This document shows, one piece after another, positions 10,600 to 55,929 of a stretch of 64,000 nucleotides of DNA. The notes under the pieces were generated by a model. The model ran no database searches. It was not told the origin of the DNA and saw only the letters and a list, made by a program, of their open reading frames with translations. The stretch lies in NCBI GenBank assembly GCA_964599625.1, contig CAZRGC010000004.1:75705-139704 (forward strand), written 5' to 3'. The stretch is from an uncultured Gammaproteobacteria bacterium (GTDB lineage Bacteria > Patescibacteriota > Microgenomatia > UBA8517). The position numbers and the translations under genes were made by a program. Each line of letters begins with the position of its first letter. Within the stretch, counting starts at the first letter, position 1.

Positions 10600-11097
10600 C
10601 TATGAGATTTTAGTTGCAACTATTACAAATCTTTTTGTGTCGAAAACACCGCTACAAGTGTAAATAACTATTTTATTATCGGTGTTTTGATTTACAACGT
10701 CATAACTTTTTGGGTCAATTTCCTGAGTAAAATCCACCACATATTTTTTGACCGAATCCTTGTTGCGTATTTCAACAACCATCCCCGGTTTTACATTAAC
10801 CAAATTTCCCAAAATGCTATTCCAATTGTGGCCGTAGATTACGTTTTGGTGGATTGATGCTCCCCGCGAGTCAGGTTGCCATTCTCCGTTTTTTTGCACT
10901 GCAGGGTATATGTTTGTCAGGATTCCCACTTTGTCTATTGCCAGGACATAATCATGATTTGGTTTTGGTGTTTCGTTTTTATTGGTCGCAAGAATTTCTG
11001 TTACAACAACAGGAGTTTTTGACTCTTTTTGATAAAAAGAAAAAAGGGACAAACACAGAAGTGTTATGCCGAGAAGTTTCAGAAGCTTATTCAACAT
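10600..11097 (-). CDS. sortase-family transpeptidase (membrane-anchored), paralog of 8851..9438
   Basis: N-terminal TM, VIYGHN, IVIYTCSG and FDTKRFVIVA motifs. It overlaps the upstream substrate gene by 11 nt. Confidence 0.75.
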   Translation of the reverse strand: MLNKLLKLLGITLLCLSLFSFYQKESKTPVVVTEILATNKNETPKPNHDYVLAIDKVGILTNIYPAVQKNGEWQPDSRGASIHQNVIYGHNWNSILGNLVNVKPGMVVEIRNKDSVKKYVVDFTQEIDPKSYDVVNQNTDNKIVIYTCSGVFDTKRFVIVATKIS

Positions 11098-13117: not shown

Positions 13118-13120
13118 CCT

Positions 13121-24800: not shown

Positions 24801-26389
24801 CTTATGCCAAGGTCTGCATCCTCCGTAACGTTAAAAGAATCCCAACCCTGCAAGTCCCGCAAAGCCTGTGTACGGAAGTGGTTGCTTGTTCCCCCCAGGG
24901 GAATTGTGGTTTCGATTGATTGCAGGCCGGGCAAAATTACGTCGAACCACAAAGAATATTCCGCCGTAAAAAGCCTGGTTAAAAGGTTTTGATGAGGATT
25001 AAAGTAGTTGAGCTTTGCCTGCAAACAAAACACGTCCATCTTGCTTTCCTGGAACGACAAATATGCCTTTTTGAGTTGTGTGGGTTCGGGCCTGTCCTCC
25101 GCATCGTAAATGACAATAAATTCTCCTGTGGCAATTTTTAATCCGTAATTGCAGGCTTTTGGCTTTGTTTTTGGTTGAGAGTCGGGAACAATTGCGATTT
25201 TAAAATAATCGGGAAGGTCAAGCTTTTTTGCCGCTTCGATTGTGTTCTCGTCATCTTCCTCCAGGAGTAAAAGCACCTCGAGTTTGTCTTTTGGATAGTC
25301 CAGTTTTCCGATGTTTTCCACAAAAGTGGGAAGCACTTTGGCTTCGCGGTACAAAGGACAGAGGATTGTATAGCGTGGGAGATAGCCGTCTTTAATATTT
25401 TTTAGGTGATCATCTGAAATTTTGATTTCGGGAGGAAAATGCAAACTTTTAAGTACCAGAAATAGGCCGAAAAATAGGTCCAAAAAGTATATAAATGACA
25501 AAATGGATATAAACAAAATAAGCGTTGATTTTGTTGCTATCAAAAGGCCTAAAAGTAATGCCGTGATCGCACCAACTATCAGAACTTTTTGCCAAGGTGT
25601 GAATGTAACGAAAGCGGATTTGGTAATATGCAGGTCTGTGTGGGTGGTGAACTTTTTGGCTTTGTATGCAAAAGTTCCCTCTTCAATTTTTATTATCCTT
25701 TTTTTGCCGAACTTGGCTTTTACTGCACTCTTGACTACTTGGTATGTTCCGGAAACTAGTGTGATTTTGGATTTGCCTTTTGCTCTTTCTGCAAAATCGA
25801 TACTAACGCATCCCATCGACTCCCCTGTTTGTTTGGCTGCGTCAACCAGGGATATATCAAAACTCCAGGGTGTCAAAGTCGCCGGGTCGATATAGTTTGC
25901 TAGCTTTCGTTTGAAAAGTTTAAGTCCAGATTGGATATCACATGGGACACCCATAAGGATGTTTCCAATTACAAATCTACTTATTTTGGAGACAAACTTT
26001 CTCCATAGTTTTTCCGAATTTCTGCCTCTGTTGGCGGTAACTATTCCCTGGTCTTTTGTCTTGGCAAGCGCATACATCTCCGGAATTGCCTCTGGCGGAT
26101 ACTGCAAATCACCGTCAATCATGGCAACGTACTCCGCGTCACTGATACTGGCACCCTGGAGTATGGAAAAAGCTTTCCCCCGCTTTCCGTGTTTGAGTTG
26201 ATACTTTATAGGATATTTTTTGGAAAGTTTTTGGATAACATCTTTTGTATTATCTTTGGAAAAGTCATCAATAAAGACTATGCCGTAATCAATACCTGCA
26301 GATTTGAGACTTGTATCTATCCTTTTGACCAGATCCTGGACATTTTCGGCCTCGTCCATCACTGGGACAACAACATCTATTTGTTTCAT
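21821..26389 (-). CDS. 1522-aa multidomain fusion: GT2 (DPM1-like) + processive GT2 (QxxRW) + Wzx/MATE-like polytopic domain + GT4
   Basis: aa 1-230 VVVPVMDEAENV...IDGD (GT2). aa ~330-620 YDAED...QRSRWIKG (cellulose/chitin-synthase-like GT2). aa ~690-1130 has ~12 TM helices (flippase-like). aa ~1150-1522 EGWGITTIEANACGTPVVAS (GT4). It is one continuous ORF on the minus strand. Confidence 0.75.
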   Translation of the reverse strand: MKQIDVVVPVMDEAENVQDLVKRIDTSLKSAGIDYGIVFIDDFSKDNTKDVIQKLSKKYPIKYQLKHGKRGKAFSILQGASISDAEYVAMIDGDLQYPPEAIPEMYALAKTKDQGIVTANRGRNSEKLWRKFVSKISRFVIGNILMGVPCDIQSGLKLFKRKLANYIDPATLTPWSFDISLVDAAKQTGESMGCVSIDFAERAKGKSKITLVSGTYQVVKSAVKAKFGKKRIIKIEEGTFAYKAKKFTTHTDLHITKSAFVTFTPWQKVLIVGAITALLLGLLIATKSTLILFISILSFIYFLDLFFGLFLVLKSLHFPPEIKISDDHLKNIKDGYLPRYTILCPLYREAKVLPTFVENIGKLDYPKDKLEVLLLLEEDDENTIEAAKKLDLPDYFKIAIVPDSQPKTKPKACNYGLKIATGEFIVIYDAEDRPEPTQLKKAYLSFQESKMDVFCLQAKLNYFNPHQNLLTRLFTAEYSLWFDVILPGLQSIETTIPLGGTSNHFRTQALRDLQGWDSFNVTEDADLGIRLFRAGYKTAIFDSVTLEEANSNVKNWIRQRSRWIKGYLQTYLVHNRKSLEFAKTGKGHFFVFQLVSGLRISFMLINPFLWAMTIAYFALYRFVGPQIESLFPPVVFYIAATSAVFGNFLYLYYYMIGAAKRGQWQIIKYIYFVPIYWLLASIGAFVAVYQLIFKPHFWEKTIHGLDLDLSKKDEVKVARFVNFKFGIPLNKDYVSGAFLIFASMVGNVLNFLYNAYLGRKLDLEDFGLIGLVGSFVYITSIPLSALARTVTYKSGYLFGKYQTPVKEYWQKVRGSMAKTSTVLAVVWLILTPILTNVFKSDTYLPFLIFVPVWVMGFVASVDGGFVSGNQLFVISGVAVIGEALAKLIFSVLFVQLGLHEWVYLSIPISMFCSFAIGWLFILNLKSKVVEIEKSEEKFPAKFFASSVANKISTIAFLSLDVVAAKIYLSPEDAGRYAILSLAGKMVYMIGSLLSGFVTPIVSKNEGEGVSSQNTFYKILGATTGMSVLAFLAFGVFGWITAPILFGDKVNSVIQYLPLYTFAILLQTVAVTIVNYHQVKGRHIFSYLGFVFSLVQIAGIAIIHRGIGDIVWAMLLGGAIYLGSMVALNFYHDAVYSILTNLADFLGLFTLVGPKSTENTTGHPRILIFNWRDTKHVWSGGAEVYIHEIAKRLVVKGYKVTIFCGNDRKNPRNEKVEGVQIIRRGGFYTVYLWAFLYYVLKLHKYFDVIIDSENGIPFFTPLYSSKKIFLLIHHVHQEVFRMKLVPPLSWIGQFLEKRIMPMVYKNTEVITVSPSSKADILEHKLTTKEPHIIYNGVDLNKYKPAKKSARPMILYLGRLTPQKSIDVLIRAAKVVLEKVPKVQIVIAGEGQDKKRLMKLAKKLGLADKIEFTGKVSDEEKIKLYQRAWLFVNPSLIEGWGITTIEANACGTPVVASNVAGLRDAVHNPHSGVLVPYGNSEEFAENIVTLLKNNRTRQRMDKDSIEWAKKFEWDNSAGELTKII

Positions 26390-42181: not shown

Positions 42182-44040
42182 ACAATTACGACCTTTTTAA
42201 TGGCAGGGTTTCTTAGAAACGACCGTTCAAGATTTCTAATCTTTCCTGATGGCAGGTTTTCCACAATTAGTGTGGCACGGAAGTGATCTTTGCCTGAATC
42301 TTCGTAAGGCTCGTTTATCATTGGTTTTATATTCCCCCCATATTTACCGACAACTTTACCTATAAATCCCAACAAGTCTTTGACATCATCACCCTCAAGT
42401 CTTATGGAATTCAGGTTGAGATCATCTTTGGATAAATGAAACTCATCCATGGCTTTGTCCAAGTCTTCCACGCCAAGTTGTCCTAACCCAATCATTCTAT
42501 AAAGATTGCTTACATACCTTTTGGCACCCAAATGTCTAAGCATTCTGGTTACTTTTTCTGAATGTTTGGGAAATCTAATCAAATCGTATATGTCAAACAG
42601 TCCCCTTTTGGCCAGTACTTCTCTAACCATAGACTTACCTTTACTGATTGTCTCTTGGTCTTCAAATTCTGCTCTTTGATCTTCTATGGCTTTACGGGCT
42701 GGTGGTAACACGTAATTTACCGCTTCTGCATCGGGAACGGCACGTGGCGGCCCTACAATCACATCTACAGTGGACGCGTTGGGAATAATTGTTGATATTG
42801 GAAATTCAACTCCGTCTATAAAAATACCTGTTGCTTGCGCGCCCATATGCTTTTCTATTGAATAAGCAAAATCTAGTCCCGTTGCCTCCGGCCTTAGGAA
42901 CTTAACCTCACCACTGGGTGTGAATATAAGTTTAAGTGTGTAGCTAGTTATGTCAGTTTGCCCGCTTCTTATTAAACTTAATACACCATGGTTATTGAGG
43001 TCTTCTCTTTTAGATGTGGTGATAGCAACTTCAAAAGAGCGTTTTCCGGAGGAAAATGGGTAATCTAAAGTAAGCTGTATTGCGCTATAACCGTTGTCCC
43101 TTGCTTTGTACAAAAAATTATCAAACCGCGACGAGTCTTCCATTTCACCGAAGTTGGCCCAGATTGCACCCAGGATCATTAACCCTTCATTTTCTGCTTT
43201 TTGCGTTGATTCTGAATCGTCTGTAATTATCCTGAAACTTACCACATCGTTGATTTTGGAAAATCTGTGTTCACGGATCATTTTGTGCCTTATTCTGGCG
43301 ATACCATTGGTTTGAATTTCAATTCTTGCGTCTATACCCAAAGACTTTACCAAATTATCAAGCTTGGAAGTTGTGTAGCCGATGAAAAGTTCACTTGTCC
43401 TGGGATCTTCCTTTAACATGTGGGAAAAGCGAGTGTATTCGTCAGGATTTGTGAATTTTAGCGACAAGTCTTCCAGTTCAATCATAACTTTCCACATACC
43501 CAAAGATTCTGCAAGTTTTGCGTAGCTTAAAGTTTCTTTGGCTTTGGCAACTCGTTTTTCGGGAGGCATGAAGTTTAATGTCCTCATATTGTGCAGCCTG
43601 TCAGCCAGCTTAAGAAGTGCAACCCAAGGATTAATAAGTGTTCTATCGAATATTTTTCTGACGGTTTCTTTGTCTGCCGACTTTCCGTTTGTAACTTTGT
43701 CAGATCTGAATTTGGATACACCCTCCACCAAAAAGGCAACTTCCTCTCCAAATTCTTTATTTATATATTCCAGCGTAAGGTCTGTATCTTCTACAGTATC
43801 ATGGAGAAGTGCTGCTGCAACTTTGTCGGGAGAGTTTTTGATGCCCCATTCTTCGTAGATTATTTTTGCAACCTCGGTGCAGTGGGTAAAGTATGGAGCC
43901 CCTTCTTTTCTGAATTGGCCTTCGTGGGCTTGTGATGCGACTCTCCATGCCTTGAGTACAAGTGGGGTGTTTTTGACATAATCCTCAAAAGTCGAGGCAC
44001 CCTCAACTCTGTCAATTGATCTTTGCCTTTCCCCCTTCAT
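42178..44040 (-). CDS. rel: bifunctional (p)ppGpp synthetase/hydrolase, RelA/SpoT homolog (HD + synthetase + TGS + ACT)
   Basis: HD motif HCTEVAKII...LLHDTVEDT, synthetase DVVSFRIITD...GYSAIQLTL, and TGS GEVKFLRPEATGLDFAYSI. Confidence 0.88.
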   Translation of the reverse strand: MKGERQRSIDRVEGASTFEDYVKNTPLVLKAWRVASQAHEGQFRKEGAPYFTHCTEVAKIIYEEWGIKNSPDKVAAALLHDTVEDTDLTLEYINKEFGEEVAFLVEGVSKFRSDKVTNGKSADKETVRKIFDRTLINPWVALLKLADRLHNMRTLNFMPPEKRVAKAKETLSYAKLAESLGMWKVMIELEDLSLKFTNPDEYTRFSHMLKEDPRTSELFIGYTTSKLDNLVKSLGIDARIEIQTNGIARIRHKMIREHRFSKINDVVSFRIITDDSESTQKAENEGLMILGAIWANFGEMEDSSRFDNFLYKARDNGYSAIQLTLDYPFSSGKRSFEVAITTSKREDLNNHGVLSLIRSGQTDITSYTLKLIFTPSGEVKFLRPEATGLDFAYSIEKHMGAQATGIFIDGVEFPISTIIPNASTVDVIVGPPRAVPDAEAVNYVLPPARKAIEDQRAEFEDQETISKGKSMVREVLAKRGLFDIYDLIRFPKHSEKVTRMLRHLGAKRYVSNLYRMIGLGQLGVEDLDKAMDEFHLSKDDLNLNSIRLEGDDVKDLLGFIGKVVGKYGGNIKPMINEPYEDSGKDHFRATLIVENLPSGKIRNLERSFLRNPAIKKVVIV

Positions 44041-44067: not shown

Positions 44068-45849
44068 TTATGGGGCAACTTCTTTCCAGTTTATTCTTCT
44101 TGTTCCCAAGACTGAGGGGAAGAGCAGTGACAAGTCCGGTGCGTATTCAAAGTATTCTGCGGGTGTTGTGAGATTTGATCCACCAAGGTCACGCTGAAGT
44201 GTTACAGAATCATAACCTGCAACAGAACCCCTCATCCTAAGTGGCAAGGCAGAAACCCCTGTTGAAAAAGAGCCTGATGCTACATAAATTCCTTCCAAGT
44301 CATACGCATTGCCGCCAAGTGCCGGATCGATGTTTATATCACCTTTGTTGCCCAATGAATCTTTGCCTGCAACTATCAAAAAGAATCCTGATCCTTTGGT
44401 GAAGTTAACTGTATCGCTAATATTGACATTGGCTGATGCTGCCAAAACAACAACTTTTTTAGATCCCAAACTCAAAGCAGAATTGATTGTTAAATCCAGA
44501 CCGCTTGAGGAGCCATCATATCGATACCAGTAATACCCGTACGATGGTGTTGAATTTGCATCAATCGCCGCCTGATCCAAAACATTGCTGGACAGTGTTG
44601 TTACCACGGTGTCTGCAGGTATTTGGTTGTTAAAATAGTTGTAATCATATTGTTTTTGGATTGGTGTTTCTGACTGGACCAGCCAACCAAGCTGTGAAAC
44701 ATCAAGACTATTCAGGCTTGTAGATATAACATAAGAAGGTATTCCAGGGTATCCTCCGGCACCTGCAAGGCTAAAATATTCCCCAGTAGGGACTGAACTG
44801 TCCAATACCCCCGAGCTTGCAACGTCTGCATCCATAACCTGCCACCACGGGGTTGCTGCCAAAACAGTGGTGCTTATGTTGTTTGTACATCCCAGAGTAC
44901 CTCCTGTAACGTATACGTTCTCTGTTATTGTCACCGATGACGTGGTGGGTGCTACGCCGGTTGCTACTGTTTGATATGCATAAGTTGCGTCACTCGCAGG
45001 GCTTACAGTTACCTTGGAGGCGTCACTGCTTGCAAATGTAACTTGTGTTATGCCAGTGCCAGAGGTAAGACTTGAAGTTATTGTTTGTGTTGATCCGTGA
45101 TTCAAAGTGACCGATGAAGGGCTGACATTACATGAAGAAACATAAGGTGCAGATGATGTTGTGTAAGATGCGCAGTTAGCATCCTGTACATTCATAACAG
45201 TCCAATAATAAACGGTATTAGGTGCAAGATTGGTAACTGTGTATGCGTTTTGTGACGAAGACATTGCTGTGGTAGAGCTATCTAACTTAACAGGACAAGT
45301 GCTAGTCCCCCCGGAACTACCTGCACAGCCTGTCTGGGGATCTGAATCTGTACTAACATATAATGCCTGGTAAGGGTTTGCGCCGCCGGTTGCCCCCGGA
45401 GTCCATTGCAATAGCACGCCAGTCGAAGAAAGTCTGGTGGTACTTAAGTTAGTAGGTGCTGTTTGGCCACATGTCCAAGCCTGTGTACAGGAATTTGTGC
45501 ACGCACAACCACTGCAACAATTACTTGTGCAACCGGGATTTGTGGTGGGTTGGGGTTGGTCTTGAGGACAACAATATCCATCACTGGCTCTATTACAAGG
45601 GTATGTGCCCGGCTGACATTGAGGAGAGTTGCAGCCGTTGTAGGAATTGTTGTCATTACAGGTTGCATAAGAGCACCACCCTGTTCCGGTTATGTTACCT
45701 GACGCGTCTTTGACATCGCAAATATATGGGTGGTAGGTCCAGTTAGCGCAAACACATTGAGCTTTTACTGTTTTTATTTCAGAGACAACAAAAAAGATTA
45801 AAAAAAACCCAAAAACTGCTATTAAGATTTTATGACCTATTTTCAACAT
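44068..45849 (-). CDS. large secreted protein with Cys-rich N-terminal module, fibronectin-III-like domain and Ser/Thr-rich body
   Basis: N-terminal TM/signal, ~30 Cys in the first 130 aa, and an FN3-like LSTTRLSSTGVLLQWTPGATG...YQALYVS. Confidence 0.6.
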   Translation of the reverse strand: MLKIGHKILIAVFGFFLIFFVVSEIKTVKAQCVCANWTYHPYICDVKDASGNITGTGWCSYATCNDNNSYNGCNSPQCQPGTYPCNRASDGYCCPQDQPQPTTNPGCTSNCCSGCACTNSCTQAWTCGQTAPTNLSTTRLSSTGVLLQWTPGATGGANPYQALYVSTDSDPQTGCAGSSGGTSTCPVKLDSSTTAMSSSQNAYTVTNLAPNTVYYWTVMNVQDANCASYTTSSAPYVSSCNVSPSSVTLNHGSTQTITSSLTSGTGITQVTFASSDASKVTVSPASDATYAYQTVATGVAPTTSSVTITENVYVTGGTLGCTNNISTTVLAATPWWQVMDADVASSGVLDSSVPTGEYFSLAGAGGYPGIPSYVISTSLNSLDVSQLGWLVQSETPIQKQYDYNYFNNQIPADTVVTTLSSNVLDQAAIDANSTPSYGYYWYRYDGSSSGLDLTINSALSLGSKKVVVLAASANVNISDTVNFTKGSGFFLIVAGKDSLGNKGDINIDPALGGNAYDLEGIYVASGSFSTGVSALPLRMRGSVAGYDSVTLQRDLGGSNLTTPAEYFEYAPDLSLLFPSVLGTRRINWKEVAP

Positions 45850-46361
45850 CTTTTTTGAAAATAATTAACAGGTATCTGACTCGAAAACGCCCACCAATCG
45901 TAACTTGTTATTTCTTTAACATTTCTTTCATCTTCCTTGCTTGTTATCACTTGAATATAATCACCCTGTTTCAAAGACTTTTGCCAGTCCTGATAATTCA
46001 TATTAGCATTTTTTGTAATATTCTGTTGTGGGTTTTTCCATCTTTCATCTTTGCACAAACTAAAGCTTGAAAAAACTGTATTTGAATTTGTTTTAAATTT
46101 CTTTAGACCGTCATAATTAAACAGCCATATCGTACTAGTTTTGTTAAAAGTGACTTGTTGAGAATATATACCAGAGTAGACCCCTGATTTTGGAAAGTTT
46201 CTTAACTGTCTTACGGAATTTTCTTTTAATTGCTGATCAAGAGTGTTTATATAAGAAAACGCCTCCCAAATTTTGGTAATGCCGAAGAAAAAAAATATGA
46301 AGCTCCCAATAGACACAAAAATAATGAGGAAAAGACCAATCTTTTGTATAAGTGCTTTCAT
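45843..46361 (-). CDS. membrane-anchored hypothetical protein
   Basis: N-terminal TM LFLIIFVSIGSFIFFFFGI. Confidence 0.5.
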   Translation of the reverse strand: MKALIQKIGLFLIIFVSIGSFIFFFFGITKIWEAFSYINTLDQQLKENSVRQLRNFPKSGVYSGIYSQQVTFNKTSTIWLFNYDGLKKFKTNSNTVFSSFSLCKDERWKNPQQNITKNANMNYQDWQKSLKQGDYIQVITSKEDERNVKEITSYDWWAFSSQIPVNYFQKRC

Positions 46362-46407: not shown

Positions 46408-47916
46408 TTATCTGGAGTAGCTTGTTTCTAAGACTATACCTTTATCACTAATATATCCCGGGTCACAGTTTTCCCCGAAATTATCCAACTTGGTTTGCAA
46501 GTCTGGATATATGCTGAACGAATTTACAACGAGAGGGTTTTTGAAATATGGGTTATCTGAAACAATTCCGGACTCGAATTGGTTGGATATAACAAGCAAG
46601 TTTCCCGCCTTTGCCCAATTCTTAATAAAATCAACTGTTTGTGAGGTTGAGTTTCCGTCGATTCTGTATACAAAAATGTTCCAAACTCCAGTATTTAAAC
46701 TTTTTGAATAAGAGAAAGTGGGCAATATTAAAAAACTTCTGGACTGAGGGAAGTCGTATCCCACCTCACCCGGCTGCAGTGTTGTAACACCATATGTTAT
46801 TCCACGCCTTACCATTGCCGTTTCTGGATTTGAAAAATTGTTTTTATTAGGGTTTCCCACAAACGTCAACTCATGGCTATTTCCGTAACACTGTACAATC
46901 TCCACTTTTGCTGGATCAAACTGATCAACAGGTAAACTTTTTAACCAATTTAAATAGTTTCCATTAAACAGGTCTTGGTAAGGAACTACACAATCTGCGT
47001 ATTTTTCAGGTGTACATATAGGGTATTGTTTAACTTCTTTTGTGGGAACTGGAGTAGAAGTTTCAGTGACAGCTTTTGTAGATACTGCGTTTGGAGTAAT
47101 TGTGGGTGTAGAAACTTCAACTCCGCTTCCATTCGGGTGATATGACACCTCGACAAAATTTGCTCCGTTTTCTACTTCTACGCCTGTGTTGGTTGTATTT
47201 GTATCTCCTTGGTAAAAAGGTGGGAAGAAAACAACTTTTCCGGTTTTTTGGTTTACGCTAAAAAGCGGAGTAACCGACTCAGGGTCAAGTTGGTCAACGG
47301 CTCCCAAAACGGTTTCACCATCTCCTGCAACCGGATCAACTTCACCAAGTTCAACAAATCTATCGATGTTTCCATCAAAAGAGGGTATCAAAACTTCAAG
47401 GTCGGGAACATTATCTTTGTTGGAATCAATTTGAGCTACATCAAAGCCAACATACGACTTTCTTGTACCATCCGGTTTTTCTTCACCTAATATCATTGTA
47501 AAAGGAGCACAAGCTTGAGCATTTTTACCTTCCATTCCAAACTCAACAACCTGAGATTTTTCAGGGTTCAGATCCAAGCCTTGTGCCTTTGCAGACGATT
47601 TAACGTTTTTAATAAAATCGACTTTAGGATTTTTAACCATGCTTATCCCCGTAATCTCCCCAACACCGCTCGGCCCCATTAGATTTTCAGACATAATCGG
47701 AAGCAAACTTGCATCCAGATTGCCAATTCCCAAGTCGGGAGCGACGGTAAACATGTGTGTGTCACAATATGGTTCCGAAGTTGGCGTTGGTGATGGCTGG
47801 TCAGCGGTAGGTGTGACGTAGCCGTAGGTTTTTCCACCACAACCAGCGAGAAGTGCTCCCACAACCATGGCCGAAGTTAGCCTGGCCCACCAAGGTAAAC
47901 GGCGTTCTTTAAACAT
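46408..47916 (-). CDS. lipoprotein (lipobox LLAGC) of unknown function
   Basis: MFKERRLPWWARLTSAMVVGALLAGCGG gives a signal peptide plus lipobox Cys. Confidence 0.6.
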   Translation of the reverse strand: MFKERRLPWWARLTSAMVVGALLAGCGGKTYGYVTPTADQPSPTPTSEPYCDTHMFTVAPDLGIGNLDASLLPIMSENLMGPSGVGEITGISMVKNPKVDFIKNVKSSAKAQGLDLNPEKSQVVEFGMEGKNAQACAPFTMILGEEKPDGTRKSYVGFDVAQIDSNKDNVPDLEVLIPSFDGNIDRFVELGEVDPVAGDGETVLGAVDQLDPESVTPLFSVNQKTGKVVFFPPFYQGDTNTTNTGVEVENGANFVEVSYHPNGSGVEVSTPTITPNAVSTKAVTETSTPVPTKEVKQYPICTPEKYADCVVPYQDLFNGNYLNWLKSLPVDQFDPAKVEIVQCYGNSHELTFVGNPNKNNFSNPETAMVRRGITYGVTTLQPGEVGYDFPQSRSFLILPTFSYSKSLNTGVWNIFVYRIDGNSTSQTVDFIKNWAKAGNLLVISNQFESGIVSDNPYFKNPLVVNSFSIYPDLQTKLDNFGENCDPGYISDKGIVLETSYSR

Positions 47917-47948
47917 TCAAAACATTATAGGACCAATAAATTTAAATG

Positions 47949-49076
47949 TCAAGTTTGTTTATTTCTTAAATTTATGGCTAATTTGTGCATTCTCGCTTTA
48001 ATATTTCCCCGTTCTATGACCCCTAGAATTACAAACATTAACCAAATAAAAGTAGGTATTAGATATGTGCGATCGAAAGCCAGGTTTGTAACAATTGCGA
48101 TAAATAGCGCAATATTCGCTCCATTTTTACTTTCTAGCCTGCTTTCAAATACAACTTGTTTTAATGTGAGGTATATCCAATAAATACCTATAGTTGCAAA
48201 AACACCGTAACCCACAACTATTTCCACAATTAGGCTGTGGACAATTTCTACCCCTGGGTAGTATTTTGGGAAGTTGCCAAAGCCAATACCCCACGGATTC
48301 TTAATAAGCAGTCCAAGCGACTCTGCAAAATATGGCCTTGAAAAGATGGTTGTTTTCTGTGTTCCAAAGTAAACTATTAGGCACAAGCCTAATATAAATA
48401 TGATATTTAAAACCATTTTTTGTCGATATTTGTGTCCTGAGATAAGGTATACAAACAAAACGGAAAATATAAGCGAAACCACTGCTGATCTGGAAAAAGA
48501 GAAAGCTACAAAAAACAGCGAAATTGCACTGAAAAATATATTGAACGGTTTAAATCCAACTGTGGGGTCTAGTATGCTGGGGACCACAGCAACCGCAAAA
48601 ACGTCGCCAATGTGATTGTGCTTAGACGTGGCTGTGGGATGGAATAAATTTTCAGACACATCAGATCTAAGGTCTTTGCCGATATTTGCAAATAGGAACA
48701 GGGCCATAACTATAGAAAGTATCCTGATAACCCACGGTATGTGTTTAGCGATTTCATCTTTGAGGTTATGGGCGGTTATCCAATAGACCGCACCTGAAAC
48801 AAGTATGATAAACAACTTCAGGTTTCCCCCAAAAAAAAAGTAGTGTGTTAGTCCCGTAATTAAAAACAATAAATATATTTTGAAATATCTGGGAAGTTTT
48901 ATATTGATGCCTGCATACAACAATAGCCCCCAAAAAAACAAATTAAAACAAAACGACAAAAAAATAGGATTTGCCATACTTCCCCCCAATGAAGCAAGAA
49001 TCAAATTGAAGGTGAGTAATGACAAAAATAGATACGAAATATTCTTTTTGTTTAATAACCTGCTGACCCGTAGCAT
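47949..49076 (-). CDS. Wzy_C-domain polytopic protein (O-antigen ligase / PglL-type O-oligosaccharyltransferase family), paralog 1
   Basis: FSRSAV..., IFSRPYFAESLGLLIKNPWGIGFGNFPKY...VHSLIVEIVVGYGVF gives the G-x-G-x-G-x-F ... H ... E Wzy_C signature. ~10 TM helices. Confidence 0.7.
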   Translation of the reverse strand: MLRVSRLLNKKNISYLFLSLLTFNLILASLGGSMANPIFLSFCFNLFFWGLLLYAGINIKLPRYFKIYLLFLITGLTHYFFFGGNLKLFIILVSGAVYWITAHNLKDEIAKHIPWVIRILSIVMALFLFANIGKDLRSDVSENLFHPTATSKHNHIGDVFAVAVVPSILDPTVGFKPFNIFFSAISLFFVAFSFSRSAVVSLIFSVLFVYLISGHKYRQKMVLNIIFILGLCLIVYFGTQKTTIFSRPYFAESLGLLIKNPWGIGFGNFPKYYPGVEIVHSLIVEIVVGYGVFATIGIYWIYLTLKQVVFESRLESKNGANIALFIAIVTNLAFDRTYLIPTFIWLMFVILGVIERGNIKARMHKLAINLRNKQT

Positions 49077-49127
49077 TTTAAGATTCTAACATTTTGTTTT
49101 ATATCAGATATTAGTTTATTATGAATT

Positions 49128-49592
49128 ATGGATTCTGAAAGTAATTCTGAAAAATACTTGCGTGTGATAATTGTAGTTCTTGTAGCTCTAATACTTTGCG
49201 GAAGTGGTTTTTTTATTACGGTCTACTTCCTTAAGAAAGATAAAGTAAATGTAAGTGAGGCGGCTGTTACAACCGATAGAAAAATCAAAATCGTTGATAA
49301 AACTAGTATTGATAAGATTTATGACTACACCACTTCGAATATACCTTCTGGACAAGAAACAAAAATATATGGAACTTTTGTTTCGGCAGACTTAGAACAA
49401 AGAATCATTGACGGAGAGAAGTATGTTTACGTTATTGGAATAAAAAACGACGATGGAAGTTTAACCAAAGTGCACTTCAAGAGCGATGAATACGAGGCTT
49501 TTGGAGGAACAATTCCAAGAGGAAGTTTTTGGGTTACAATGCCTGTTGTTGTTACCATAAATTCTTTGGGAATCTCTTTAGAGAAAAATTAA
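49128..49592 (+). CDS. small N-terminally anchored protein, paralog of 50769..51209
   Basis: N-terminal TM VIIVVLVALILCGSGFFITVYFL. The C-terminal segment VHFKSDEYEAFGG aligns with IHFTQEEYDYVDP in the paralog. Confidence 0.5.
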   Translation: MDSESNSEKYLRVIIVVLVALILCGSGFFITVYFLKKDKVNVSEAAVTTDRKIKIVDKTSIDKIYDYTTSNIPSGQETKIYGTFVSADLEQRIIDGEKYVYVIGIKNDDGSLTKVHFKSDEYEAFGGTIPRGSFWVTMPVVVTINSLGISLEKN

Positions 49593-49660
49593 TCCTAAAA
49601 ATAAAAAAGTCAGGTACTGTTTTACATACTTTGTTTTTGGTATGAGTTTTTTCCTAGAGA

Positions 49661-50554
49661 TCAAGATTCCTCTTCTTCGATCCCTATACACAAAAACCAA
49701 AACCACATAAAACCGAAGATGATGTAATTAGGAGTAAACAAAAGTATTACGAGTGTTGACAACTGGACAGACTTTATAAAAAAGTTTTCTTGACCAACGG
49801 TTGTTAGATTTTTATAAACCTTAAACATCCATACAACAAAAGGTATTGAGAATATTCCAAGTCCCGAAACAATTTCCAGCAATATGCTATGTGCAAAGCT
49901 AGTAGAACTGCTCACAAGTCCAAAATTTCCCAAACCGACTCCCCAGATATTGTCAAAAAAAACTTTTATACTTTGAAAAAAATAAGGTCTGTTAAAAATA
50001 GTGGTTTTAGAAAGCCCCATAAACAAAAGTATGATAATGCTTAAAAGAGTGAAACCCACTTTCCATTTTGTAAAAATTTTGCTTACTTCCCCGTTTGCCA
50101 AATATAAAAGACCTAAAATTATTCCTAATATGACAGTTCTATTGAAGGATATAACTGCAAATACTAGAGTTATTATTATCAGGTGGGGTTTCACTTTTAC
50201 ACCCTTTTGCGCAACCTCTGTCAGTGCATAAAACCCCCATATTAACCCAAGGTTAAAGTGTATGGTTGGATCGGTTTGGGGAAAAATAAAAAAAGCGAAC
50301 TTGGCTAACTCAATTGGAAAAATAAAGGACAGCAAATACAAACCGGCGTATAGAAATGAAAGATATTTTATTGATTTTGTAATCAAATGAAAACTTTGAT
50401 TGTAGTTATAAAAAAATAAATACCCCAACACACCCAAGTTAAAGTTCAGGGCATATCTTAGGGGGTTGACTGTTTCGTTGATAAAAAATGGAAATAAGTT
50501 GAGTAATGCCGTAAATGTAAGAAGAGAAAAAAAACCCGGTGGTATTGATACCAC
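49661..50554 (-). CDS. Wzy_C-domain polytopic protein, paralog 2
   Basis: IFNRPYFFQSIKVFFDNIWGVGLGNFGLVSSSTSFAHSILLEIVSGLGIFS. Confidence 0.65.
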   Translation of the reverse strand: MVSIPPGFFSLLTFTALLNLFPFFINETVNPLRYALNFNLGVLGYLFFYNYNQSFHLITKSIKYLSFLYAGLYLLSFIFPIELAKFAFFIFPQTDPTIHFNLGLIWGFYALTEVAQKGVKVKPHLIIITLVFAVISFNRTVILGIILGLLYLANGEVSKIFTKWKVGFTLLSIIILLFMGLSKTTIFNRPYFFQSIKVFFDNIWGVGLGNFGLVSSSTSFAHSILLEIVSGLGIFSIPFVVWMFKVYKNLTTVGQENFFIKSVQLSTLVILLFTPNYIIFGFMWFWFLCIGIEEEES

Positions 50555-50768
50555 TTTGTTATTTGAAATATATATCCCAAAGCCAACAAATAAAAAAACA
50601 AATACAAAAGTGAAGACGAAAATGCCATGGTATAGCCGGAAAAAGACAGGAAAAGTGCACCCAAAAAAGATGCAAACATTGTAAATTCCAACAACTGGGT
50701 TAATGTGTTTAAGTGGTTTGTTTTGTTTTTTGTCAATTTAGTCTATTATAAATTATGAGCGCTCTAAA

Positions 50769-51209
50769 ATGGGTGTTGGCATTTTTTATACTGATATTTA
50801 TAAGTCTTTCCGGTTACTACCTATACACAAAAATAAGTACACCAAAACCAACCGTTTCGGCTGTAGTGATGAACCTAGGGAGATTCCCTCTGCTCCACCC
50901 AAATTGACAACAAGTCAGGTGGCCTACCGTGTTGATGACTTTTTTAGTTCTAATTTAAATCCTGGTGAAACTTTTACCATCCAAGGTCAACTTCAAAGTG
51001 CGCAACCCGAGTTGATTAATATAAATGGCATCGATTTTGTTTTTGTGATGGGAGTTGTTAGAACCGATAAAACCATGGTCAGAATTCATTTTACTCAAGA
51101 GGAATATGATTATGTCGATCCTGTCTTACGAGAGGGTGTTTGGACACACCAGAATGTTTCAATCAGTATTACAGAAGGCAACTACGAAATCCGTCACCTT
51201 GGAGAATAA
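50769..51209 (+). CDS. small protein paralogous to 49128..49592
   Basis: Shared ...G(T/I)(F/D)(V/F)...(V/I)HF(K/T)(S/Q)(D/E)EY(E/D)... pattern. The start and anchor are less clear. Confidence 0.45.
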   Translation: MGVGIFYTDIYKSFRLLPIHKNKYTKTNRFGCSDEPREIPSAPPKLTTSQVAYRVDDFFSSNLNPGETFTIQGQLQSAQPELININGIDFVFVMGVVRTDKTMVRIHFTQEEYDYVDPVLREGVWTHQNVSISITEGNYEIRHLGE

Positions 51210-52264
51210 TCTTCATTTTCTTCCAGGCCTATGCTTATGAACCAAAGCCACATGAAGCCTATTACTATGTAGTTTGGTGTAAACATTAAAATAAACAGAA
51301 TTGATAGTTGGACCGACTTAATAAAGATTTTCTCTTGGTTCGCAGAAATCAAGTTTTTATAAACAGCCACAATCCAGACTATAAATGGCAGTGAAAACAC
51401 CCCCAATGCCGAAATCATCTCTAAAAGTATGTTGTGAGCAAAATTAGTTGAATTACTAACCAGAGCAAACCTGCCTATTCCAGTCCCCAGCGGATACTTG
51501 GATAAACCAACAATCGACTCTAAAAAGTATGGCCTAGAAAAAAGTATTGATTTAAATGATCCGAAAACCAGAAAAAAAAGCGATAAGCTGATTAAAATAT
51601 ATGGAAAATATTTATTAAGTGTTTTTGTTTTTGACATGTAAAATAGATACAGAATTGACGTGACTACAGACAGCACTGCAGACCTGGAGAAAGAAACGCC
51701 AATAAAAAAAATTCCAACAACTGTTATTGCTAGTTTAGTTAGGTTTAATCCATGTCTATATCCGAATATTGTTGCTACAACAACGACTGCCCACAGATCA
51801 CCGACATTGCTATGTTTAATGGTGTCGGTCGGAGGAGCGAAGAGTGTTGAAAGACTTGGCAAGTCAAAAGTTACGAATTGAGAAATAAAATACATCCCCC
51901 CCATAAGTAAACCTAGGGCAACAAGCAAGTTGCTGTAGAAATTCCTAAATACCTCGTTAAAATTACTAGCCAGCAGTATGAAAACAATACCTGAAAAGTA
52001 GATGTAAAAATAGTAAAAATCACCCTTTGTGGTCAATGTGTGAATTCCTGCAACCAAAATAAATACAAGATAAATCCAAAAAGAGTTTTGTATTTTTACC
52101 TTACCTTCAATTAAGATTTTGATTCCCAAAAGAATCGTGCCAATGATGATTCCCGAAAACAAGACAATTTCTCTGAAGATACCAAAAGAACCAAGCATTA
52201 TCAAAACAGAAACTATTATAAATGTCAGGCCATCAAACGTTTTCATTTGGAGCGTTCTTGTCAT
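51194..52264 (-). CDS. Wzy_C-domain polytopic protein, paralog 3
   Basis: LFSRPYFLESIVGLSKYPLGTGIGRFALVSNSTNFAHNILLEMISALGVFSLPF. Confidence 0.7.
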   Translation of the reverse strand: MTRTLQMKTFDGLTFIIVSVLIMLGSFGIFREIVLFSGIIIGTILLGIKILIEGKVKIQNSFWIYLVFILVAGIHTLTTKGDFYYFYIYFSGIVFILLASNFNEVFRNFYSNLLVALGLLMGGMYFISQFVTFDLPSLSTLFAPPTDTIKHSNVGDLWAVVVVATIFGYRHGLNLTKLAITVVGIFFIGVSFSRSAVLSVVTSILYLFYMSKTKTLNKYFPYILISLSLFFLVFGSFKSILFSRPYFLESIVGLSKYPLGTGIGRFALVSNSTNFAHNILLEMISALGVFSLPFIVWIVAVYKNLISANQEKIFIKSVQLSILFILMFTPNYIVIGFMWLWFISIGLEENEDYSPR

Positions 52265-52275
52265 CCTAACTTAGT

Positions 52276-53226
52276 TTACCTTAATTTTTTATACCAGTCC
52301 CAAGCCCTGTAGATCCCCTTATGCAGCTGCGTTTTTGGTTTGTACCCAATTGTTCTTGCGGCAAGTCCAATGTCTGCATAGGAGTCTTTAATATCACCTA
52401 TTCTTTGCGGTCTTTGCTCAACATCGAGTTTTGTTTTTGTGACTTTTTCAATCAAATCTTTGACTTGTAACAAGTTAAGGTTTTTACTACTACCAATGTT
52501 CAAAGCAATACCCCTTAGCGGTTTTTTGCAAATCATGGCTTTATAATTGGCATCGACAACGTCATCTACAAAGCAAAAATCCCTTGTTTGAGTTCCATCA
52601 CCTTCCAAATATCCTGATTTACTCTTCTTTGACAAAGTGTCTAGCCAGGCCGATATGACTGTGGAATATGGGGAGTCACCAAACTGCCCAGGTCCGTAAA
52701 CAGAAAAATATCTTAGTGATACTGTGTCCAAACCATATATATTTGAATATATCTTGCAATACTTTTCGGAAGTGTATTTTTGCAAAGCATATGGAGAGGT
52801 AAAATCTTTGCCCGCTTCGTCTTCGGGTGTGGGTATACTCTTTGTGTTTCCATAGACCGATGAAGATGAAGAATAAATAAATCTTTTGACTCCGTATTTT
52901 TTGGATTTATCTAAAAGATTTATTGTTCCATTTATATTAACGGACGCAGTAATTACCGGCTCCTTAATTGAAAATGAAACTCTTGGCAATGCTGCAAAAT
53001 GGAACACATATTCTGGTTTGTGTTTTTTAAAAATATAATCAGTTTTTCTGGAATCCAAAATTGAGGCCTTGTAAAAGATTGATTTTGGGTTGACTGAAGT
53101 TTTTTTTCCTGTTGATAAATCGTCTATGCCTACAACCGTTGCTGAAGGATTTTTTTTAATAAAATAATTTACAAAATTACTGCCGATAAATCCTGCCGAT
53201 CCTGTGACCAAAATACGTTTAGGCAT
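52276..53226 (-). CDS. NAD-dependent epimerase/dehydratase (UDP-sugar epimerase/decarboxylase-like SDR)
   Basis: ILVTGSAGFIGSNFV Rossmann motif, with YALQK (Y-x3-K). Confidence 0.85.
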   Translation of the reverse strand: MPKRILVTGSAGFIGSNFVNYFIKKNPSATVVGIDDLSTGKKTSVNPKSIFYKASILDSRKTDYIFKKHKPEYVFHFAALPRVSFSIKEPVITASVNINGTINLLDKSKKYGVKRFIYSSSSSVYGNTKSIPTPEDEAGKDFTSPYALQKYTSEKYCKIYSNIYGLDTVSLRYFSVYGPGQFGDSPYSTVISAWLDTLSKKSKSGYLEGDGTQTRDFCFVDDVVDANYKAMICKKPLRGIALNIGSSKNLNLLQVKDLIEKVTKTKLDVEQRPQRIGDIKDSYADIGLAARTIGYKPKTQLHKGIYRAWDWYKKLR

Positions 53227-53282: not shown

Positions 53283-54095
53283 ATGAAACTTAAAAAGCAT
53301 TTTCTAGTATATTTTCTGATTTTTTTATTTGTTATTTTGACCTCAGAAATATTTTATTCTTTTAAAAACCGGACTCTTTTTTTGGAAAGAATTTTTTTTC
53401 AGCTGGTTTACTCAAACACACGTTTTGAGGACACGCTCATTAAAGTTGTACCAGATTTGTATACAAAGTCATATCTTAGTTACCTAAAAGACATAACTTT
53501 AGAAGAAACAGCATATGGGTGTAAGCCCTTGTGTGTTTCTTATGTTGAATCTCTCAATTTGCTTAAGACTTTCCAAAAAATCGAAAACACTAAGATTTTT
53601 GAATTAACCGACTTGCAATCAAAATCCGAATATTATTACTTGATGGCAACAGCCGCTGTCAGAGTCGATTTTCATACCGCAAGCATATATCTAGATAAGT
53701 CGTTGGAATATTTTCCTCAAAATTCAAAATCGTTAAAGTTTAAAAATCAAATTAATACAATTTTTCAGATATTTCACGATTTAAACGCCAGAAATGATGT
53801 AGATGTGTGGTTGCAAGCAAATCCTGAAACACTTATGCAGTTCGAGAGAGATTACTTAGCTTTTGCCGCAAATGAATTGGGTGGTTTATATGACGTTGGT
53901 TCACTAAAATCTTTAAACTATTTCGAAATTGCAGTTAATTTGAACCCTTGGAATGAAGAATATTACATGGATTTGTACAACGCTTACAAGGTCAAAAAAG
54001 ACCAAGGTGTTTTAACGGTTCTTGAAAAGTGCATAGAAAAATTAGGATCTGATGCCGGGCGTTGTTTATCGGAAAAAAATACTCTCAAACGTTGA
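53283..54095 (+). CDS. membrane-anchored hypothetical protein (possible helical-repeat/TPR-like)
   Basis: N-terminal TM LVYFLIFLFVILTSEIFY. The rest is helical-looking with no catalytic motif. Confidence 0.45.
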   Translation: MKLKKHFLVYFLIFLFVILTSEIFYSFKNRTLFLERIFFQLVYSNTRFEDTLIKVVPDLYTKSYLSYLKDITLEETAYGCKPLCVSYVESLNLLKTFQKIENTKIFELTDLQSKSEYYYLMATAAVRVDFHTASIYLDKSLEYFPQNSKSLKFKNQINTIFQIFHDLNARNDVDVWLQANPETLMQFERDYLAFAANELGGLYDVGSLKSLNYFEIAVNLNPWNEEYYMDLYNAYKVKKDQGVLTVLEKCIEKLGSDAGRCLSEKNTLKR

Positions 54096-54809
54096 TCTAA
54101 AATACTCTTTAATAAATATTAAATTCGCTAAAGTATATCTTTTGAAAAGTCTATTGGGTTCTTGAAAAAACCTAAAAACCCATTCCAAATACATTTTACG
54201 TATTATTAGCGGAGCTCTCCTTTTTGTGCCGGCAATATAATGGAAAACTCCCCCAACTCCCATATACAAAGCGTTCGGAAGACTTTTCAAATTCTTTTGG
54301 ATCCAATACTCCTGGTATGGCACTCCCATTCCAACAAAAACCAAATTCGGTTTTTTTCTATTCAAATCACTTAATAAATTTAAATTTTGTTTTTTGCTGG
54401 GAAAACCATTATGAAAACCGGATATATTAATTTTCGGATAACGTTTTCTTATAGCTCCTACAGTTTTTTCGATAACTGGCTGTTCACACCCAATTAGATA
54501 AATTTTTAAATGATGTTTTGATATTTGTTTTAGTAAATCAAAAATAAAATCTCCCACGTTCAACCTTGAATCTAATTTTTGTGGAAGATGAAGTGAGGCA
54601 AGAACTGGTCCCCAGCCATCGGGGTAAATTATTTTAGATGTGTTGATTATCTTGCGATACCTTTTATTTTTAAGATAAGTAACAACACCATAGGCATTCA
54701 TATTGCTTATCAATGTTTTACTATTTTTCTTTGAGTAGAAAATAATTTTATCAAAGAGCTCTTCTTTATCAATTCTGTTAAACGGTACCTTGCCAAATAT
54801 TTTAATCAT
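54066..54809 (-). CDS. tagA: WecB/TagA/CpsF-family (GT26) glycosyltransferase
   Basis: KIYLIGCEQPVIEKTVGAIRKRYPKINISGFHNGF...PNLVFVGMGVPYQEYWI matches the TagA/WecG core. Confidence 0.8.
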   Translation of the reverse strand: MIKIFGKVPFNRIDKEELFDKIIFYSKKNSKTLISNMNAYGVVTYLKNKRYRKIINTSKIIYPDGWGPVLASLHLPQKLDSRLNVGDFIFDLLKQISKHHLKIYLIGCEQPVIEKTVGAIRKRYPKINISGFHNGFPSKKQNLNLLSDLNRKKPNLVFVGMGVPYQEYWIQKNLKSLPNALYMGVGGVFHYIAGTKRRAPLIIRKMYLEWVFRFFQEPNRLFKRYTLANLIFIKEYFRSTFESIFFR

Positions 54810-55929
54810 TTAAAATTTTTGCTGAATACATGCGTATATTTTTGACAAAGACTTCACTCGAAAACTTTTTGGAATAATTCCATATGTATTTGTAACTAAA
54901 CTTGGTTTGTGAAAATTTAATGAGTGCTTTTTGCAATGCCGCTTCGGATAAATCGTAAAAGAATATGCCAGTCTTGCCAGGAATGATTGTCTCTTTGTGA
55001 CCTCCGGAATAATATGCTATAGAAGGCTTGCCATATCCTGCCGCTTCTGCAATTGTCATCCCAAAGTCCTCGTCTGAAGTTGCGACGATAAGTGCCTTGG
55101 ATTTTTTGTAAATGTTATTAAGATGTGAGTCATTAACCTCACCCAAAAATTCAATATTATTCGCCCCAAAAGCCAGTTTTTGTAGTCTCCTTTTTTCTTT
55201 GCCTCCCCCGACTATTTTTAGATTCAAATCGGTATTTTTGAATGTTTTTATTATTAGATCGACATTTTTATATTTAACAAGTCTGCTAACTACCAAAAAA
55301 TAATCACCTCTTTCGTAGGGTTTTTTTTGTGCTGGGCATGGTGGATTGATTACCACTGAGCCTCGTTTGTAAATGTTTTTGATTCTTTTGGAAACGTTTT
55401 TTGAGTTTGCAATAAATAAGTCAACTTTTTCATTGCTTTTTTTGTCAAATACTTCTAGATAAGTGTTCACAATATTCAAAATAAAACCAAACGCTTTTGT
55501 TTCCAACCCAGATTCTGTTGACAACCCGTAAATAAATCTGGGAGGTGTATGGCAGTAGCATATATGTTTTGTTTTGTCTGAAATTGGAATTGATTTAGAT
55601 ATGTTTGAACCAGATGAAGATATAACCAAATCAAATTTCTTTGTGTCAAAGAATCTCCACACCAAAGGCAGAATAGGTCTATACAAAAGCGGGTATCTGC
55701 GGAGTAATGGAATATTTTGAACCCATGATGTTATGATGTTCGCTGTTTTAAAATTATCCATGAAGCTACCCATTCTTTGGTAGTCAATTGAAGCTACAAA
55801 TATAGGTGCGGAAGGAAATGTCTTGTGAAGTTCCTTAAGAACCCTTTCACCTCCTCCAAATGTTCTCAGGTAATCATGGGCAATAGCTACTCTTTTATTT
55901 TTTAATATTGTGTATGAAGTCGAGCTCAT
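54802..55929 (-). CDS. glycosyltransferase family 4
   Basis: C-terminal ...ATSDEDFGMTIAEAAGYGKPSIAY (GT4 E-x7-E region). Confidence 0.75.
   Translation of the reverse strand: MSSTSYTILKNKRVAIAHDYLRTFGGGERVLKELHKTFPSAPIFVASIDYQRMGSFMDNFKTANIITSWVQNIPLLRRYPLLYRPILPLVWRFFDTKKFDLVISSSGSNISKSIPISDKTKHICYCHTPPRFIYGLSTESGLETKAFGFILNIVNTYLEVFDKKSNEKVDLFIANSKNVSKRIKNIYKRGSVVINPPCPAQKKPYERGDYFLVVSRLVKYKNVDLIIKTFKNTDLNLKIVGGGKEKRRLQKLAFGANNIEFLGEVNDSHLNNIYKKSKALIVATSDEDFGMTIAEAAGYGKPSIAYYSGGHKETIIPGKTGIFFYDLSEAALQKALIKFSQTKFSYKYIWNYSKKFSSEVFVKNIRMYSAKILND

Follow-up and report, generated by a model that had tools for sequence, protein, structure and literature searches.

The 64-kb window analyzed here (positions 75,705 to 139,704 of contig CAZRGC010000004.1; all coordinates below are positions in this window) carries three paralogous genes for membrane enzymes, ParA, ParB, and ParC, interleaved with two genes for small proteins, S1 and S2. 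Shared ancestry, fold, and conserved catalytic positions make the enzymes very probably WaaL/Wzy_C-class transferases of undecaprenyl diphosphate (Und-PP) glycans, and they are very divergent members of a known enzyme superfamily, not a new kind of system. Our best guess, unproven and with a rough probability of 0.4, is that they are protein O-oligosaccharyltransferases (O-OTases) that use an Und-PP glycan and accept Ser/Thr residues of surface proteins; in this reading, donor, acceptor, and the part played by the small proteins are what we infer. The locus is also a recombination mosaic with a decayed middle pair, and ParA, ParC, and S1 alone look functional in this genome. All five open reading frames (ORFs) of the original prediction are present, and three of them correspond to whole genes; the one called at 49661-50554 is just the 3′ part of ParB, and the one at 50769-51209 is truncated at its anchor.

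ParA, 47949-49076, minus strand: A-type WaaL-like (divergent Wzy_C) enzyme with 12 transmembrane (TM) segments, 375 amino acids, intact ORF.
S1 (also W_154), 49128-49592, plus strand: small anchored protein of 154 amino acids, with a TM helix, a disordered linker, and a possibly OB-like (oligonucleotide/oligosaccharide-binding) beta domain.
ParB, 49661-50679, minus strand: B/C-chimeric, frameshifted WaaL-like gene, probable pseudogene.
ParB ORF as called, 49661-50554, minus strand: 297 amino acids with a GTG start, 3′ part of the ParB gene only.
ParB homopolymer, 50592-50598, minus strand: T7 in the coding strand (A7 in the plus strand), one base short, giving the frameshift.
Recombination breakpoint within ParB, 49900-49940: the 97.5% identity to the related locus L006 stops at ~49920.
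S2 (also W_146), 50755-51209, plus strand: frameshifted paralogue of S1, with an anchor frame from 50755 to ~50905 and a domain frame at 50769-51209.
ParC, 51194-52264, minus strand: C-type WaaL-like enzyme, 356 amino acids, intact.

The paralogy of the three large proteins holds, with BLASTP E values of 2.4e-33 (ParA/ParC), 4.8e-54 (ParB/ParC), and 1e-17 (ParA/ParB). All three have the motifs RPYF, GxGxG(N/R)F, and H(S/N)xxxE, the H and E positions being invariant, and the A, B, and C types are roughly equidistant at ~28-30% mutual identity. Orthologues of ParA (P0003, 58%; P0005, 43%) always lie directly upstream of the gene for a predicted lipoprotein, p502, and ParC has orthologues at 94% (L006_350), 44% (L001_354), and 39% (L007_355) identity. 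ParC scores 314.9 bits against the family profile. Extra enzyme paralogues in the window were rejected, as the profile recovers just the three known copies, and so was a phage origin: with ParA and S1 as queries, tblastn found no match in 50,697 phage records.

Membership in the Wzy_C/O-antigen-ligase family holds indirectly, through homologues and the predicted fold. A word-indexed homologue search returned nine relatives, two of them with precomputed Wzy_C matches, and an exhaustive hidden Markov model search with a ten-sequence profile recovered 329 clusters at E ≤ 1e-30 and 5925 at E ≤ 1e-3. A sample of 74 members was drawn from the best-scoring of these (recovered at E ≤ 1e-50). PF04932 (Wzy_C) is matched by 60 of the 74 at E ≤ 0.01 (best 1.3e-10), and its gathering score is exceeded by P0007, P0009, and P0155; the models PglL_A (PF15864), Wzy_C_2 (PF11846), O-ag_pol_Wzy, EpsG, and WzyE are matched by none. 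The AlphaFold2 model of ParA (predicted local distance difference test, pLDDT, 80.4; predicted template modeling score, pTM, 0.84) has ~12 TM helices. In Foldseek its sole PDB match below E 0.001 is WaaL (7TPG; 7tpg_B, E 3.7e-4, probability 1.00, TM-score 0.54), and the second match, RodA, follows at E 0.9. The Wzy_C signature that had been read from the three sequences thus stands by way of homologues and a WaaL-like fold, and not by a direct Pfam match.

Ligases and polymerases were distinguished by their catalytic residues as described in PMC10920833. According to Meitil et al. (PMC10920833), WaaL binds Und-PP through R191 and R265 and activates the acceptor through H313. This Arg/Arg/His set is the one that O-ligases employ; polymerase families from their clan show Asp or Glu where WaaL has its His, and in SEDS proteins that residue is Asp (PMC10920833). 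When the 74-sequence HMMER profile is aligned with the WaaL sequence (a weak alignment, E 0.025), the SxSRSA of the family falls on ..GTR191GA, setting R196 on R191, and GvGvGnF...aHNiiLE falls on GVGVGQF...AH313NDIVE, setting H280 on H313; R247 is paired with R265 through spacing only. Column conservation in the 74-sequence alignment is near complete at R196 (74/74), R247 (73/74), H280 (70/74), and E285 (73/74), as it is at H153 (72/74), N104 (73/74), and Y338 (73/74). The H280 column holds Glu in a single member, and a conserved Glu follows five residues later, as in WaaL. The Arg/His conservation that the original prediction had proposed as a check is therefore present. Because His is retained where polymerases carry Asp/Glu, we place the family on the ligase/oligosaccharyltransferase side, and the retained His points to that chemistry.

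The same comparison bears on another reading, in which the three enzymes would be Wzy-type repeat-unit polymerases, serotype-determining and swapped between strains, and the S proteins would be co-polymerase, chain-length, or specificity factors. Much of the context suits it. The genes share a cluster of polysaccharide type with those for WecG, GT4, and an epimerase; O-antigen and capsule loci typically display strain-level allelic replacement, chimerism, and frameshifts; and at 350-375 residues with short loops the proteins are nearer to typical polymerases than to known OTases. Tandem Wzy_C paralogues also occur in the related clusters L015 and L016, and Pfam Wzy_C itself contains polymerases. 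Nonetheless, the acceptor-activating position is a ligase-like His in 70 of 74 members where same-clan polymerases have Asp/Glu (PMC10920833), and the models O-ag_pol_Wzy, EpsG, and WzyE go unmatched among them. The window ORFs that were scanned contain no Wzx (MOP) flippase and no Wzz/PCP domain, though both could be encoded elsewhere in the genome, and the phosphoglycosyl transferase and TPR fusions described below suit a terminal transferase better. On balance, we consider polymerases somewhat less likely than O-OTases.

Whichever chemistry applies, the middle pair appears to have decayed. ParB is a recombinant, B-type at its N-terminus and C-type at its C-terminus. DNA alignment with L006 puts its true start at ATG 50679, ahead of the frameshift, where the window has T7 and the 97%-identical L006 has T8. 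Adding one T restores a protein of 339 residues; the intact B-type protein of L006, P0004, has 354. Residues 1-250 of ParB are 88% identical to P0004, whereas over its last 89 residues the identity is 65% with ParC and just 29% with P0004, and the end of the L006 identity (~49920) coincides exactly with this switch. An assembly error is an unlikely source of the frameshift, since the same T7 is found in three assemblies from different sequencing runs (the window, L004, and L005, the latter two 99.99-100% identical to it). The T7/T8 run may be a site of phase variation.

S2 is broken in a different way. Its ancestral start lies at 50755 (MSALKWVLAFFILIFISLSGYY...), and the orthologue in L006 likewise begins MSALKWVLAFFILIFISLSGYY. 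The DNA alignment with L006 shows that one base pair is deleted near 50865, not in a homopolymer, which parts the anchor from the conserved domain. The anchor frame reaches a stop after 50 codons, and the ORF as called (50769-51209) has no hydrophobic segment and no membrane anchor; its counterpart L006_151, 97% identical over residues 36-151, keeps the TM anchor. The middle pair of ParB and S2 is probably pseudogene-like. Three substrate-specialized OTases, as first proposed, therefore give way to two intact enzymes and one intact small protein, and N-terminal anchoring, claimed for both small proteins, is borne out for S1 and not for S2 as called.

Comparison of strains reveals the recombination. 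L006 matches the window at 97.5% identity between 60678 and 49920 and is unalignable below that point. L008 is ~100% identical from ~43.7 to 40.3 kb (relA and pilins), with 64-73% DNA identity from 43.99 kb upward; the corresponding breakpoint (43700-43990) lies in the 5′ part of relA. The block at ~43.9-49.9 kb is thus a mosaic that matches neither near-identical neighbor. Identities to the L007/L008 proteins are 43% for ParA, 45% for S1, 39% for ParC, 57% for p502, and 75% for the surface protein p593, so a strain with 100% identical pilins has enzymes just 39-45% identical. The block is a recombination hot-spot and a strain-variable surface-glycan island. Its gene content is variable as well, since two membrane proteins present in relatives are absent from the window, a weakly PTPS_related-like protein of 575 residues (L007:8241-9968) and a DUF6311 protein of 699-716 residues (L007:4443-6593 / L001:6249-8348). 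By analogy, the allelic replacement seen here would resemble that of surface-antigen loci. Because the block is exchanged wholesale between otherwise near-identical genomes, it appears to be a target of diversifying selection through phage, host, or predator recognition.

The small proteins S1 and S2 align with each other as had been claimed (28% identity over 82 residues, E 2e-10). S1 is 82% identical to L001_154 and 45% to L007_155, and because of this conservation in relatives it is a real gene; the concern that the plus-strand ORFs might be spurious is thereby answered. Homologues number six in a collection of 5.8 billion proteins, all from this lineage. A remote member (L009:5060-5683; hhalign probability 71%, E 3.6e-5) lies ~1.3 kb from the gene for P0007, a fusion protein of the enzyme family. 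It has Lys/Arg ahead of its TM helix and a APETITSTITSPAPL linker behind, which favors a location of its domain outside the cell. Structure prediction, suggested earlier for the small proteins, was run on S1 (AlphaFold2, pLDDT 66) and gave an anchor helix at 3-37, a disordered linker at 36-60 (pLDDT <50), and beta strands at 64-153; the architecture is clear, the fold itself at most weakly OB-like. Two candidates for remote S homologues, S3 (L006_187) and L009_176, were rejected at an hhalign probability of ~1-2%. S3 is an unrelated anchored protein of a build similar to that of S1 and S2, and the S-equivalent position in L006/L013 and in L009 is held by non-homologous proteins with an anchor, a Ser/Thr/Pro linker, and a beta domain.

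In relatives that carry S genes, these always adjoin the enzyme genes. Within the window, S1 and ParA are divergent with 51 bp between start codons, S2 and ParB are divergent with 75 bp between them, and the 3′ ends of ParC and S2 overlap by 16 bp; ParC starts 11 bp downstream of an epimerase gene on the same strand. Gene orders are as follows (arrows give transcription, asterisks inactivated genes).

Window: C→ ←S2* B*→ ←S1 A→ p502
L001: C→ ←S1 A→ p502
L007: C→ ←S1 [575-residue membrane protein] A→
L006 and L013: C→ ←S2 B→ ←S3 p498

The enzyme types (28-30% identity) and S1/S2 (28%) are about equally diverged, and for this reason an old duplication as an S-enzyme unit fits the sequences, as the original prediction had it. 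Inactivation has struck S2 and ParB together and spared ParC and S1; this gives a hint, from a single case, that S2 works with the B-type enzyme. One may go further and suppose that each intact enzyme and a dedicated S protein form a two-gene module, the linker and OB-like domain of S serving as the cognate acceptor or as an acceptor-presenting subunit, and that strains duplicate, swap, and inactivate such cassettes and so vary their surface glyco-coat. We think this extension quite unlikely; if true, it would be a minimal protein O-glycosylation system of an undescribed type in an ultra-small monoderm bacterium.

About as doubtful is its opposite, that the S ORFs are lineage-specific anchored proteins functionally unlinked to the enzymes and that the apparent module is an accident of synteny. 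This would account for their position on the opposite strand, for their detection in a narrow lineage only, and for the fact that most of the wider enzyme family (L010, L014, L015, L016) has no S neighbor; S1 is moreover better conserved (82%) than the flanking enzymes (44-58%), which argues against co-diversification. Linkage is in turn suggested by the matching divergence of S1/S2 (~28%) and the enzyme types together with the divergent arrangement at 51-75 bp, by the joint inactivation of S2 and ParB beside intact ParC and S1, by the remote S homologue near a distant phosphoglycosyl transferase-Wzy_C fusion gene, and by the non-homologous proteins of the same build at the equivalent position in L006/L013 and L009.

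The enzymes lie among genes of a glycan pathway (an epimerase, a WecG/TagA protein, a GT4 glycosyltransferase, a phosphodiesterase, and sulfatase-type, LtaS-like membrane proteins), and a different set of genes follows ParA.

Epimerase/dehydratase, 52276-53226, minus strand: NAD-dependent sugar enzyme (GalE/TviC-like), TIGR01179 E 2.5e-56.
W_270, 53283-54095, plus strand: membrane-anchored protein with one TM segment, weakly TPR-like.
WecG/TagA-family glycosyltransferase, 54066-54809, minus strand: TIGR00696 E 2.3e-41, TarA model E 4.5e-41; the family substrate is undecaprenyl-diphosphate-linked GlcNAc.
GT4 glycosyltransferase, 54802-55929, minus strand: PF00534 E 1.9e-28.
p502, 46408-47916, minus strand: predicted lipoprotein with lipobox LAGC and Thr/Pro/Ser-rich linkers, directly downstream of the A-type enzyme.
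p172, 45843-46361, minus strand: small protein anchored at its N-terminus, in synteny with p502 and p593.
p593, 44068-45849, minus strand: secreted or anchored Cys-rich fn3/Big_2 surface protein, PF00041 E 2.9e-6.
Recombination breakpoint, 43700-43990: 5′ part of relA, with L008 identity ~100% below and 64-73% above.

These neighbors are compatible with a glycan assembled on Und-PP. Two independent homologues of the enzymes, P0007 (L009:2024-3712) and P0011, fuse a Bac_transf phosphoglycosyl transferase to a WaaL-like domain; such fusions join the first and last membrane steps of the Und-PP pathway in one polypeptide. In P0009 and P0164 a C-terminal TPR is fused to the enzyme domain, and anchored TPR proteins are encoded beside or near enzyme genes in L010 (L010_227, L010:930-1613), L001 (L001_208, L001:5570-6196), and L007 (L007_189, L007:3809-4378; TPR_8 27.6 bits, above cut-off). 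W_270 resembles L010_227 weakly (E 0.003) and has no Pfam TPR match. PglL and the S-layer O-OTases of Gram-positives (WsfB, WsaA/WsaB) are likewise described with a fused or adjacent TPR (PMC2943079), and OTase genes frequently adjoin acceptor genes (PMC3643930).

We propose that the glycan would be assembled on Und-PP by the adjacent WecG/TagA, GT4, and epimerase products, and that H280 would activate an acceptor hydroxyl, with the glycan then moved en bloc. Because the cell appears to be without lipid A, Ser/Thr residues of surface proteins are the most likely acceptor; the enzymes would in this respect be analogues of WsaB/WsfB from Gram-positive S-layer glycosylation. Two candidates for acceptors or partners are the S proteins, divergent beside the A- and B-type enzymes, and the set of lipoprotein (p502) and fn3 protein encoded immediately after ParA. 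In every case, the genes after a ParA orthologue are p502, p172, and p593; the four p502 orthologues, when aligned, conserve the lipobox and a TPT..SPTP linker, and p593 is 75-79% identical in relatives. A perfect sigma-70 consensus (TTGACA-17-TATAAT, 12/12) lies at 47924-47952 on the minus strand, over the ParA stop codon and upstream of p502, which suggests that p502-p172-p593 have a strong promoter of their own.

The case for a protein acceptor draws on the host envelope. A sortase-domain protein (10600-11097, minus strand) adjoins a 390-residue anchored protein. GyrB has 649 residues, its Toprim domain ending at 545 and its C-terminal domain beginning at 578, which leaves no room for the insert that proteobacterial GyrB typically carries. 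The type IV pilus cluster comprises PilB, PilT, PilC, PilD, and about nine pilins, with no secretin in the window. Because of the sortase, the short GyrB without the insert, and the pilus cluster without a secretin, the host is probably monoderm (like bacteria of the candidate phyla radiation/Patescibacteria) and non-proteobacterial. No lipid A or core genes were found in the window, and lipid A is an unlikely acceptor for a host that looks monoderm. We know of no precedent for a glycolipid-directed Wzy_C ligase in monoderms.

The host evidence also tells against a third alternative, WaaL-like ligation onto a non-protein acceptor (a membrane glycolipid anchor, a cell-wall polymer, or, in a diderm, lipid A-core), which we consider very unlikely: the nearest solved structure and the catalytic residues are indeed those of WaaL, CAZy GT121 members occur in Gram-positives (acceptors unknown; PMC10920833), LtaS-like sulfatase and phosphodiesterase membrane proteins lie nearby, and a related metagenome-assembled genome carries a Gammaproteobacteria label; yet the sortase, the short GyrB, and the missing secretin speak against a proteobacterial diderm, and the window is without lipid A or core genes.

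Several observations weigh against protein O-glycosylation as we read it. Pfam and NCBIfam scans (Wzy_C included) gave no relevant match for any of the five window proteins, none for the enzymes at E ≤ 0.1; a three-sequence enzyme profile had no match among PDB sequences, and the HMMER alignment that sets the family on WaaL is weak, at the E of 0.025 given above. PglL_A and Wzy_C_2 have no match among the window proteins or the 74 members. The enzymes are 50-250 residues below all characterized O-OTases (PMC9829042, Table 2), with an outer loop of ~40 residues. Neither a flippase nor an initiating transferase was found among the window ORFs scanned (64 kb), and co-transcription of ParA and p502 is not assured because of the sigma-70 consensus between them. 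For the small proteins, the evidence on S1 topology comes from the L009 homologue and not from S1 itself, and an OB-like fold is held with low confidence, the S1 model (pLDDT 66) finding only weak OB folds in the PDB (Arcadin-1, the LysRS anticodon-binding domain, RPA), all at E ≥ 6.5e-3. S and enzyme genes lie on opposite strands, unlike known co-transcribed OTase-acceptor pairs, and the conserved adjacency of the two is weak evidence because the close relatives all come from one narrow lineage. The title "uncultured Gammaproteobacteria bacterium" of the related genome, which we regard as a probable mislabel, is at odds with a monoderm host.

The link to pilins, on which the original prediction had leaned, is not supported. 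The pilin cluster lies ~6 kb from the enzymes, beyond relA: the nearest pilin gene ends at 42181, and relA and three further genes stand before ParA. The pilins have no evident C-terminal Ser/Thr tail or sequon. Assignment to the PglL/PilO type is likewise disfavored, with PglL_A and Wzy_C_2 motifs in 0 of 74 members and with a size and gene position unlike those of TfpO/TfpM.

Related loci offer further observations. Tandem or clustered pairs of Wzy_C-like paralogues occur in distant relatives (L015:273-2497; L016:8001-9635 and 13075-14349), the L016 pair again with sulfatase, GT4, epimerase, and WecG genes; since such pairs recur in L015 and L016, multi-copy enzymes appear to be general in these clusters. 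The window itself holds a second glycan cluster, with two multi-pass membrane proteins (553 and 497 residues, 7-10 hydrophobic segments; 13121-16262, minus strand) that have no Pfam match and may be GT-C-type enzymes; it also encodes a polysaccharide deacetylase, a GT2 protein, a DegT aminotransferase, a GT4 protein, an epimerase, and a triple-glycosyltransferase protein of 1522 residues (21821-26389). An S-adenosylmethionine (SAM) riboswitch, RF00162, was detected at 30-124 on the minus strand with 44.4 bits, exactly the gathering threshold.

If the enzymes are protein O-OTases, they would be the smallest known (~350-375 residues, with the ~40-residue outer loop), and could help to define the minimal WaaL/PglL catalytic core, which is relevant to glyco-engineering. 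They would also offer a way into surface variation in uncultured, host-dependent monoderm bacteria.

Among known systems, WaaL (CAZy GT121; PF04932; 7TPG) is closest in structure. Like the ParA model it has a 12-TM GT-C_B fold, its Arg/Arg/His positions align with those of the family (R196/R191, R247 approximately R265, H280/H313), and the HNxxxE motif is common to both. WaaL, however, has a large periplasmic domain where the window enzymes, at 350-375 residues, have an outer loop of ~40 residues; its acceptor is lipid A-core, whereas the window host is apparently without outer membrane and lipid A; and the window family has an additional, family-specific HxHxGD motif (H153, D158). Wzy polymerases of clan GT-C1 (GT125-129) share clan and fold class, an Und-PP-oligosaccharide donor, similar size, and a place in variable glycan loci, but they carry Asp/Glu where the window family keeps His, and their Wzx/Wzz partners were not found in the window.

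PglL, PglS, TfpO (PilO), and TfpM are members of the Wzy_C superfamily too; their conserved His is essential (PMC9829042; PMC3643930), and their genes often lie beside that of the acceptor. They are larger (420-620 residues as compared with 350-375), and their PglL_A and Wzy_C_2 domains were not detected in the window family. Genes for TfpO/PilO and TfpM (420-470 residues) lie directly downstream of a co-oriented cognate pilin gene, while those of the window enzymes (340-375 residues) are not so placed. WsaB/WsfB offer a parallel in architecture, to which and not to sequence the likeness refers: they are Wzy_C-domain enzymes of a monoderm encoded within a glycan cluster. No S-layer gene was identified here, and W_270 is without a Pfam TPR match. 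For WsaB/WsfB, the TPR comes either as a fusion or from a small neighboring gene (PMC2943079), and in the window family it is likewise fused, in P0009 and P0164, or present in an anchored TPR protein nearby.

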